From Escherichia coli 042 (lineage in GTDB: Bacteria > Pseudomonadota > Gammaproteobacteria > Enterobacterales > Enterobacteriaceae): 64,000 nt of DNA. The stretch lies in assembly GCF_000027125.1 (NCBI RefSeq), contig NC_017626.1; one strand, 5' to 3'. Positions 37,285 through 38,467 of the stretch are shown here, piece by piece; the first letter of the stretch is position 1; each line of letters opens with the position of its first letter. Below the pieces are notes generated by a model. The model ran no database searches. It was not told the DNA's origin and saw nothing but the letters and a program-made list of their open reading frames with translations. Position numbers and translations under genes: made by a program.

Positions 37285-37295
37285 CTTTATTAAAG

Positions 37296-37316
37296 GGGGA
37301 AACGGTATTCCCCCTT
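37296..37316 (-). terminator. Hairpin terminator downstream of toxin ORF, unit 1
   Basis: aaggggga-aacggtat-tccccctt stem-loop immediately 3' of the minus-strand peptide ORF. Confidence 0.5.
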
Positions 37317-37337
37317 AGATGCGTTTCAATTTGCCCG

Positions 37338-37427
37338 TTACTTCAACAAATCAATCAACCGTAACAGAGCCACTAATAACTCCAGTACGGCAATGAGCAC
37401 GGTTAACTTTTGTGTCAGCGTGTCCAT
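37338..37427 (-). CDS. zorO: 29-aa hydrophobic peptide, candidate type I toxin (Zor-like), unit 1
   Basis: ATG at 37427 preceded by AAGGAG at 5-nt spacing; translation MDTLTQKLTVLIAVLELLVALLRLIDLLK, a single predicted TM helix with C-terminal basic residue, similar in style to TisB/DinQ/ZorO. Missed by the 60-aa ORF track. Symbol tentative. Confidence 0.7.
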   Translation of the reverse strand: MDTLTQKLTVLIAVLELLVALLRLIDLLK

Positions 37428-37608
37428 CCGCTCTCCTTATTAAGGAGCGCAACACCAGCACCTTACCCTTACGCTGCCTGTCGATACTGGTTTACGTATG
37501 TTGAGTCGCCATGTTGCACTCCGGATCAGAGCACTACCTGCGGCACCACCCGTCCGGTAGCCAGGACTTGAAATGGGTTCGATCCGGCGCAACTTCCCAA
37601 CAGTCAGG

Positions 37609-37659
37609 ATTATAAATCTCATTATCTTAATTGCAACACTGTCCAGAGGTGGTTATAAT
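37609..37659. promoter_or_regulatory. Divergent promoter pair sharing a palindromic -35 hexamer, unit 1
   Basis: TTGCAA (37631-37636, self-complementary) with TATAAT at 37654-37659 (17-nt spacer, plus strand) and TATAAT on the minus strand at 37614-37609 (16-nt spacer). Confidence 0.6.
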
Positions 37660-37666
37660 TCGTTCG

Positions 37667-37747
37667 TTGAGATGCCATGTTGCACTATCAGTAACTTAAC
37701 ATCAAAGTAGTAAATAAAAGAACCTGCCTCACCAGCAGGTTTTTTTA
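37667..37747 (+). ncRNA. orzO: About 81-nt small RNA, candidate antitoxin (Orz-like), unit 1
   Basis: Starts 7-8 nt after the plus-strand -10 and ends at hairpin acctgc...gcaggt + T7 (37722-37747); its 5' 21 nt match plus-strand 37500-37520 inside the toxin 5' UTR at 19/21 positions, i.e. complementary to the toxin mRNA. Confidence 0.65.
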
Positions 37748-37945
37748 TTTTCTGCGATCTACTTTCCAGATATTTTTTGCCAATAGCCCACCATAAATAT
37801 TCACATCCCGGTTAAACGGTACGTTGAATATAAAATCGATGAATTTATAAATAAAAATGAGTTATATGATGAATTAATAAAAACAGTAATCATTTTATTA
37901 AAGGGGGAAGCGGTTTTCCCCCTTAGATGCGTTTCAATTTGCCCG

Positions 37946-38035
37946 TTACTTCAACAAATCAATCAACCGTAACAGAGCCACTAATAGCTCCAGTACAGCA
38001 ATGAGCACGGTTAACTTTTGTGTCAGCGTGTCCAT
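37946..38035 (-). CDS. zorP: 29-aa hydrophobic peptide, candidate type I toxin (Zor-like), unit 2
   Basis: Identical peptide to unit 1 with two synonymous changes; same SD spacing. Confidence 0.7.
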   Translation of the reverse strand: MDTLTQKLTVLIAVLELLVALLRLIDLLK

Positions 38036-38216
38036 TCGCTCTCCTTATTAAGGAGCGCAACACCAGCACCTTACCCTTACACTGCCTGTCGATACTGGTT
38101 TACGTATGTTGGACCACGATGTTGCACTCCGGATCAGGGCACCACCTGCAGCACCACCCGTCCGGTAGCCAGGACTTAAAATTGGTCCGATCCGGCGCAA
38201 CGTCCCAACCGTCTGG

Positions 38217-38267
38217 ATTATAAATCTCATTATCTTAATTGCAACGGGGTCCACCGATGGTTATAAT
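38217..38267. promoter_or_regulatory. Divergent promoter pair sharing palindromic TTGCAA -35, unit 2
   Basis: TTGCAA 38239-38244; TATAAT 38262-38267 (plus strand); TATAAT on minus strand at 38222-38217. Confidence 0.6.
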
Positions 38268-38273
38268 TCGTTC

Positions 38274-38357
38274 GTTGGAACACGATGTTGCACAGGCTGC
38301 GGTGTTGGGCCTGAAAATAGTAAATAAAAGAACCTGCCTCACCAGCAGGTTTTTTTA
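38274..38357 (+). ncRNA. orzP: About 84-nt small RNA, candidate antitoxin (Orz-like), unit 2
   Basis: Same architecture as unit 1; 5' region matches plus-strand 38108-38127 in the unit-2 toxin 5' UTR (19/20); ends at identical hairpin + T7. Confidence 0.65.
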
Positions 38358-38467
38358 TGTACTGTGATCTGCTTTCCAGATATTTTTCGCTCAAACAACT
38401 AATGCGGCAAACATTTATTGCGCGTAAAATATCGTTTATTTCATTAATACATTTCAGGGATGAATAT

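Follow-up and report, generated by a model that had tools for sequence, protein, structure and literature searches.

Two tandem zor-orz type I toxin-antitoxin modules in the yehK–yehL interval of Escherichia coli 042

What does the interval between yehK and yehL of Escherichia coli 042 contain? In standard annotation the zor-orz locus of this site, which combines genes for small Zor toxins with genes for Orz antitoxin small RNAs (sRNAs), looks like an empty 1.2-kb intergenic gap, because zor open reading frames (ORFs) and orz RNAs were annotated in none of the 11 RefSeq/PGAP records examined and a peptide scan against NCBIfam, which holds no model for the 29-aa peptide, returned no family. A first-pass annotation of a 64,000-nt stretch of this genome (NCBI RefSeq assembly GCF_000027125.1, contig NC_017626.1; the whole stretch is called the window below) had proposed two tandem Zor/Orz-like type I toxin-antitoxin modules at 37290–38396. 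We put at about 95% the probability that the region represents the zor-orz type I toxin-antitoxin locus found on the Escherichia chromosome, here in two tandem modules. A ZorO-identical peptide, matches to the Rfam OrzO-P model and a genomic context like that of strain EDL933 bore the proposal out, and every element it had described was present in its place.

The locus used for comparison was that of E. coli O157:H7 EDL933, whose zorO-orzO and zorP-orzP pairs were reportedly described by Fozo in 2010. In the EDL933 sequence used (L003:31350-32589), two minus-strand 29-aa ORFs begin MDTLTQ... (zorO) and MDSLTQ... (zorP). The repeat finder reported a tandem direct repeat at 37256–38390 of the window with copies 608–610 bp apart; two ungapped repeat families (D1 and D2) showed 91–92% identity between the two copies, and unit 1 was 89.8% identical to unit 2 over the aligned 461/463 nt. 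Both units occupy the yehK–yehL intergenic site, flanked by yehI and yehK on the upstream side and by yehL and yehM on the downstream side, like their EDL933 counterparts.

On the minus strand, the ORF listing and comparison with EDL933 identified zor-1 (37338–37427) and zor-2 (37946–38035), each of 29 codons plus a stop and each preceded by the consensus Shine-Dalgarno (SD) sequence AAGGAG, as had been predicted. Both encode one identical peptide, MDTLTQKLTVLIAVLELLVALLRLIDLLK, which matched ZorO over its full length in three sources: letter for letter the zorO product of EDL933, the synthetic ZorO peptide used in PMC6669753, and, by exact-sequence look-up, 'Small toxic protein ZorO' in UniProt (ZORO_ECO57). 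The product of zor-2 is also ZorO, with T3 at the position where EDL933 ZorP has S3.

The plus strand of each unit carries an Orz sRNA, recognised by Rfam and by homology. Orz-1 (37666–37746, 81 nt) comprises a 5′ pairing domain of 21 nt and a 3′ intrinsic terminator, and reads GCC at V1 (+9 to +11); Orz-2 (38274–38356, 83 nt) reads ACG, the OrzP type. V1 is the published specificity region, being GAA in OrzO and ACG in OrzP (PMC3919570). Scanning 36500–39200 with the Rfam OrzO-P model (RF02083; gathering score 60 bits) gave full-length matches of 91.7 bits at 37673–37746 and 101.3 bits at 38281–38356, and a gathering-threshold scan of the whole window confirmed both sRNAs. Their +1 positions follow the EDL933 register (PMC3919570), in which transcription starts seven nt past the −10, on the G of GTTGG; the resulting lengths equal those of EDL933 OrzO and OrzP and lie within the 81–84 nt anticipated by the first-pass annotation. 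Each sRNA ends in a G+C-rich hairpin followed by seven T. The terminator scan reported this hairpin on the minus strand only; with an A-tract upstream and a T-tract downstream it could terminate transcription in either direction, and the plus-strand reading follows the Rfam structure line. Sub-threshold Rfam matches to ohsC, STnc370 and the Thr and Trp leaders over Orz bases were rejected as driven by the terminator hairpin and U-run; the ohsC match to Orz-1 was weak (33.6 bits against a threshold of 50) and mostly terminator-driven.

A consensus scan of 37200–38500 returned exactly four promoter-like sites, in two pairs, each pair with one common TTGCAA. These palindromic hexamers (37631–37636 in unit 1, 38239–38244 in unit 2) lie 17 nt from a plus-strand TATAAT (orz-1, 37654–37659; orz-2, 38262–38267) and 16 nt from a minus-strand TATAAT (zor-1, 37609–37614; zor-2, 38217–38222), in agreement with the proposal that a single self-complementary hexamer serves as the −35 of both divergent promoters. 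Shore et al. 2024 (PMC11264685, Table 3) list TTGCAA as the −35 of both zor and orz, with identical conservation figures, and the same zor −10 element for EDL933; they found the −35 and −10 hexamers conserved in at least 99% of loci. The number of promoter-like sites alone was not above that in shuffled sequences (4 vs 2.8 ± 1.6); chance is excluded because the elements recur in every unit of 13 other loci and because both sRNAs pass the curated Rfam threshold. The zor and orz start sites (37601 and 37666; 38209 and 38274) are 65 bp apart and divergent, which rules out an antisense antitoxin overlapping in cis.

The zorO 5′ untranslated region (UTR) measures 174 nt, with the ribosome-binding site (RBS) at +164 to +169 (PMC5397157). 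The window UTRs align to EDL933 without indels, and placing the mapped EDL933 start accordingly gave zor start sites of 37601 and 38209, each seven nt below its minus-strand −10 box, with UTRs of 174 nt at 37428–37601 (zor-1) and 38036–38209 (zor-2), where about 175 nt had been predicted. The RBS AAGGAG occupies 37433–37438 (+164 to +169) in zor-1 and 38041–38046 in zor-2. In ViennaRNA folds of the ~ 314-nt transcripts it lies in a hairpin, GCGCUCCUUAAUAAGGAGAGCG, in unit 1 paired with CUCCUU (plus-strand 37443–37448), and its mean unpaired probability was 0.07 in all four full-length mRNAs. Upstream lies the region termed 'exposed after processing' (EAP), +73 to +102 of zorO, the 3′ part of which is bound by OrzO (PMC5397157). 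Its counterpart in zor-1, a putative ribosome standby region at 37500–37529 recognised from direct-repeat family D3 and from pairing, has a conserved GGAGUG motif inside the Orz-1 site; that of zor-2, assigned by homology and pairing, is at 38108–38137.

In minimum free energy (MFE) folds of four of four full-length mRNAs, the 5′ end (GUUGGG...GUUGCGCCGGAUC) folds back onto the EAP/Orz site and pairs across it, in line with published reports that the full-length UTR inhibits itself. The segment corresponding to the 28 nt removed from the 5′ end in EDL933 (PMC5397157) is 37574–37601 in zor-1. As a separate observation, the leading ~ 22 nt of the two zor mRNAs (37580–37601 in unit 1) start with GUUGG, as the Orz sRNAs do, and their pairing with the EAP site that Orz binds (37500–37529 in unit 1) resembles a built-in cis copy of the antitoxin in the MFE fold.

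At the 3′ side, an inverted repeat that is also the 3′ hairpin of the MFE fold was found at 37293–37316 on the minus strand (AAGGGGGAAUACCGUUUCCCCCUU followed by UAAUAAAG), abutting the yehK stop codon; its zor-2 equivalent, from the repeat finder and fold, is at 37901–37924. The T-run is weak and the 37293–37316 hairpin was missed by the terminator scan; we infer that it is used as the zor-1 terminator. A 3′ end after it would give a zor-1 transcript of ~ 314 nt, which agrees with the zorO bands of ~ 310 and ~ 280 nt on published Northern blots (PMC3919570).

By analogy with the EDL933 O-type pair, which the Q and P pairs of the window (see below) would be expected to resemble in behaviour, each module would produce a minus-strand mRNA of ~ 314 nt for the 29-aa inner-membrane peptide ZorO. 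The primary mRNA would be poorly translated, with AAGGAG locked in its hairpin and the first ~ 22 nt paired across the upstream EAP; loss of 28 nt from the 5′ end would free the EAP, thought to be a ribosome standby site, and so promote translation. From the same palindromic −35, the plus strand would give rise to the 81- or 83-nt Orz sRNA, whose 5′ ~ 20 nt would pair with the freed region of the cognate mRNA (+82 to +102), leading to a block of translation and cleavage by RNase III. Toxicity, sRNA rescue, RNase III dependence, processing and the standby role are all taken here from the EDL933 O-type literature. There, overproduced ZorO was toxic and stopped growth, OrzO rescued the cells in a manner that needed RNase III and not Hfq, and OrzP did not rescue from zorO (PMC3919570); EAP binding by OrzO also blocks translation (PMC5397157). 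ZorO is located at the inner membrane, where it causes depolarisation, lower ATP and more hydroxyl radicals (PMC6669753), and its published toxicity needs several charged residues.

Is the pairing between each sRNA and its mRNA preserved in the window? A 26-nt direct repeat occurs in four copies (37495–37520, 37661–37686, 38103–38128 and 38269–38294), and the Orz 5′ end and its target are copies of a 21-nt direct repeat that lie 166 bp from each other in the DNA; since mRNA and sRNA are read from opposite strands, such a direct repeat yields complementary RNAs. The first ~ 20 nt of each Orz are complementary to its own mRNA at +82 to +102, which the pairing table and duplex energies place, as predicted binding sites on the minus strand, at 37500–37520 for Orz-1 (the 3′ part of the zor-1 EAP) and at 38108–38128 for Orz-2 on zor-2. 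Orz-1 and zor-1 pair as 6(1)14, one G-U included, with an A-A mismatch at +7 and a U-G wobble at +8, and Orz-2 and zor-2 as 6(1)13, with a single mismatch at +7; EDL933 OrzO and zorO form 18 contiguous pairs, one of them G-U. The published rule, derived by experiment, asks for 15 or more contiguous pairs, or for 17 or more discontinuous ones interrupted by one internal mismatch (PMC3919570). Both window pairs fall under the second alternative, unit 1 only if G-U is counted as a pair, as its authors do in their 18-nt O pair. Cognate duplex energies were −34.4 kcal/mol for unit 1 and −34.8 kcal/mol for unit 2, and the cross pairs between the two units gave −22.6 and −21.3 kcal/mol with at most 10–11 contiguous pairs. 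On this prediction each window sRNA should control only its own mRNA, though the two mRNAs share one peptide product. In the 22 units compared, which came from 14 sources, the target covaried with sRNA positions +5 to +11 in three discrete types, O, P and Q (V1 of unit 1 is of the last), and this covariation implies that the pairing itself is under selection.

Several points weigh against a regulated two-module system of this kind. The interruption in the Q-type pair (A-A at +7, U-G at +8) adjoins +9, a position critical in OrzO, and the longest Watson-Crick run of unit 1 is 13 nt (14 with the wobble), short of the 15 contiguous pairs that suffice alone. A published test of the Q-type pair was not found in the literature, nor was one of the P-type pair. 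Removal of the 28 nt in silico did not open the EAP of unit 1 (unpaired probability 0.33 to 0.26); this test has low power, and in the EDL933 zorO control the change was weak (0.32 to 0.42) even for an experimentally probed mRNA. Finally, the physiological role of zor-orz is unsettled, and the better growth that extra copies confer in aminoglycosides does not depend on ZorO toxicity (PMC9860968).

The last result leads to the alternative that survives best, namely that selection has mainly favoured something other than toxin control, with Orz sRNAs or zor mRNAs acting on further targets, for instance in aminoglycoside tolerance, and with a secondary place for the toxin-antitoxin behaviour. Besides the toxicity-independent growth benefit, it draws on the conservation and expression of orphan orzP in zor-less strains (PMC11264685) and on the excess of genomes with OrzP-type 5′ ends (4,681 of 5,426 complete E. 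coli genomes, orz-only strains included) over those with zor (3,397). No other target is known, however, and the covariation of sRNA and target within each unit shows selection on Orz–zor pairing itself; such a function would also add to toxin control by the zor-orz modules and not exclude it. We consider this alternative improbable, if worth keeping in mind.

A poorer prospect is that a duplication left one or both units as decaying relics without regulated toxin expression. In about a third of E. coli genomes zor has been lost and orz alone is kept, as also reported in PMC11264685, and the spacer between the units does hold a decayed fragment: the plus-strand translation of 37787–37909 matched YehK residues 49–90 by BLASTP (36% identity over 42 aa, E = 6e-4), and the nucleotide alignment with yehK was marginal (score 29, with shuffles reaching 27 at most). 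The copy stops at the zor-2 terminator, as the real yehK stops at the zor-1 terminator, so the ancestral duplication unit seems to have included the 3′ half of yehK, with the spacer fragment as its relic; parts of the duplication are therefore decaying. Both units nevertheless retain intact ORFs with identical products, RBSs, promoters, terminators and full cognate pairing, and the synonymous and UTR differences between them spare all of these elements, which makes decay of the modules themselves very unlikely. About 35 nt 3′ of each Orz terminator are likewise duplicated.

Which specificity types, then, do the two zor-orz modules represent? The pairing domain and target of unit 2 are identical to those of EDL933 OrzP/zorP and the whole unit is 97.0% identical to EDL933 P, whereas V1 of unit 1 (GCC) is neither O nor P. 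The first-pass match to zorO-orzO / zorP-orzP consequently held for the ZorO peptide and for the P type of unit 2, and failed for unit 1, which is not O. That the locus is after all the EDL933-type O and P pair, as both ZorO peptides and the P-type RNA parts of unit 2 would allow, has hardly any chance of being right, since EDL933 O (GUUGGUACGAAAUG...) is set apart from unit 1 at +5 to +11, both in the Orz 5′ end (GUUGAGAUGCCAUG... in unit 1) and in the target, the identity of unit 1 to EDL933 zorO/orzO is 89.8% against 96.3–98.5% to units with the same target in five genomes (L001, L004, L009, L010 and L011), EDL933 OrzO reaches only −23.4 kcal/mol on zor-1 (−23 to −24 kcal/mol over the window mRNAs), and the GCC-type unit of strain NS-NP030 (L001), with the same Orz 5′ end as unit 1, encodes A20S, the signature of published ZorQ.

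The third type described by Shore et al. (PMC11264685), zorQ/orzQ, has a common protein variant defined by A20S, and through the A20S link in NS-NP030 unit 1 is most likely this published zorQ/orzQ. Like zorQ/orzQ, it is of a type distinct from O and P; unlike the common ZorQ variant, it encodes the ZorO sequence, with A20. The arrangement in the window would accordingly be Q-type plus P-type, both encoding the ZorO peptide, as judged from the sequences compared. Among the 22 units from 14 sources, the arrangements seen were O+P, Q+P, Q+O, P alone, Q alone, orzO-only plus a full P unit, and orzP-only.

A bolder proposal, for which we see a rather small though real chance, is that the Q-type pair of unit 1 makes up a third orthogonal specificity class and, as a second and speculative point, that gene conversion within a unit keeps sRNA and target matched. 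Such conversion, rather than paired compensatory mutations, could maintain the concerted change of the repeats. In strain SCU-122 (L009:~300-830), a single unit combines a Q-type target with a variant Orz 5′ end (GTTGGGGCGCCATGTTGCATA), and its pairing is 6(1)13 with two G-U; this unit may be an intermediate between specificity types.

How widespread is the locus? In the sample of 5,426 complete E. coli genomes, any part of it was found in 5,232, and the zor UTR plus ORF in 3,397 (about 63%) at 5,228 places, with a median of two per genome. The P-type Orz 5′ region was the commonest, as given above, followed by the O type (1,262 genomes) and the Q type (66 nt, as in Orz-1; 858 genomes). These counts fit the percentages of Shore et al. 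(PMC11264685), who reported two copies in 42%, one copy in 25% and orz alone in about 30%. The first-pass annotation had placed the locus in 'some pathogenic E. coli', which understated its spread by our counts and by those of PMC11264685 alike. Its remark that K-12 lacks the locus was right in that the toxin ORF is gone, and wrong in that the K-12 derivative MC1061 (L002:1487-1792) keeps an intact orzP, together with the shared promoter region and a promoter-proximal stub of the zor UTR with no ORF. The orphan antitoxin is expressed in MG1655 as OrzPmg (PMC11264685). In strain 2013C-4282 (L006), an orzO-only remnant stands beside a full P unit. Strain Ecol_316 carries the locus in a form 100% identical to that of the window. 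Outside E. coli, exact matching of the Orz 3′ 30-mer to one-per-species representatives, which misses diverged copies, found only E. whittamii and Escherichia sp. MOD1-EC7003. The Escherichia whittamii locus (L012:12220-12940) is an O+P tandem in which the unit-2 peptide carries Q6R (MDTLTRKL...).

Compared with known systems, the window is closest to EDL933, with which it shares the site, two tandem units, the 29-aa peptide, the 174-nt UTR, RBS, promoter hexamers, terminators and sRNA lengths of 81 and 83 nt. It differs in V1 of unit 1 (GCC vs GAA in EDL933 OrzO) and at the yehK-proximal edge, where the ~ 60 additional nt of EDL933 are missing. Systems of the tisB/shoB type resemble zor-orz in having a divergent, non-overlapping sRNA with short complementarity far upstream of a sequestered RBS, and in an mRNA activated by 5′ processing for which a standby-site mechanism has been proposed (PMC5397157). 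The toxin sequences are unrelated, however, zor-orz has neither the LexA/SOS box nor the CpxR site described for those systems, and tandem multi-copy units with insulated specificities are particular to zor-orz. The hok-sok, ldr-rdl and ibs-sib systems likewise repress a small hydrophobic membrane toxin by RNA, but their antitoxins overlap the toxin transcript and are fully complementary to it, whereas the zor and orz start sites are separated and point away from each other.

Of the surrounding sequence, yehK (36979–37284, plus strand) runs straight into the zor-1 terminator in the window, and in EDL933 the ~ 60 nt (TATACTCTAGATAATTAAAGTCGCAGC...) separate yehK from the first zor terminator; the differences between strains indicate that the yehK 3′ end and junction are variable. 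RefSeq names yehK 'hypothetical protein' in some strains with the variant of the window (H1, H2 and H5). Small ORFs of 20–68 aa overlapping the units on both strands had no SD and no conservation argument and were treated as chance. Elsewhere in the window, the only Rfam matches at gathering score were a TPP riboswitch (14541–14637, minus strand, 71.8 bits) and a Peptidase-S11 motif (58687–58767, minus strand, 72.8 bits). The EDL933 annotation of the same neighbourhood shows a TPP riboswitch adjoining thiM.

The answer to the opening question is therefore a known locus, with descriptions going back to 2010, detailed dissection in 2014 and 2017 and an E. coli-wide survey in 2024, and what was found is no departure from the published system. 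For the window we established the anatomy of the locus, its identity to ZorO and OrzO-P, complementarity specific to cognate pairs and the distribution, as well as RBS sequestration in predicted folds. The practical value lies in annotation, and the result has little weight as a discovery. At the level of the strain, it adds the combination of a Q-type with a P-type unit, both encoding ZorO and with antitoxins predicted not to cross-react; if the Q pair is orthogonal, E. coli 042 would run a pair of identical toxin genes, each under an antitoxin insulated from the other.

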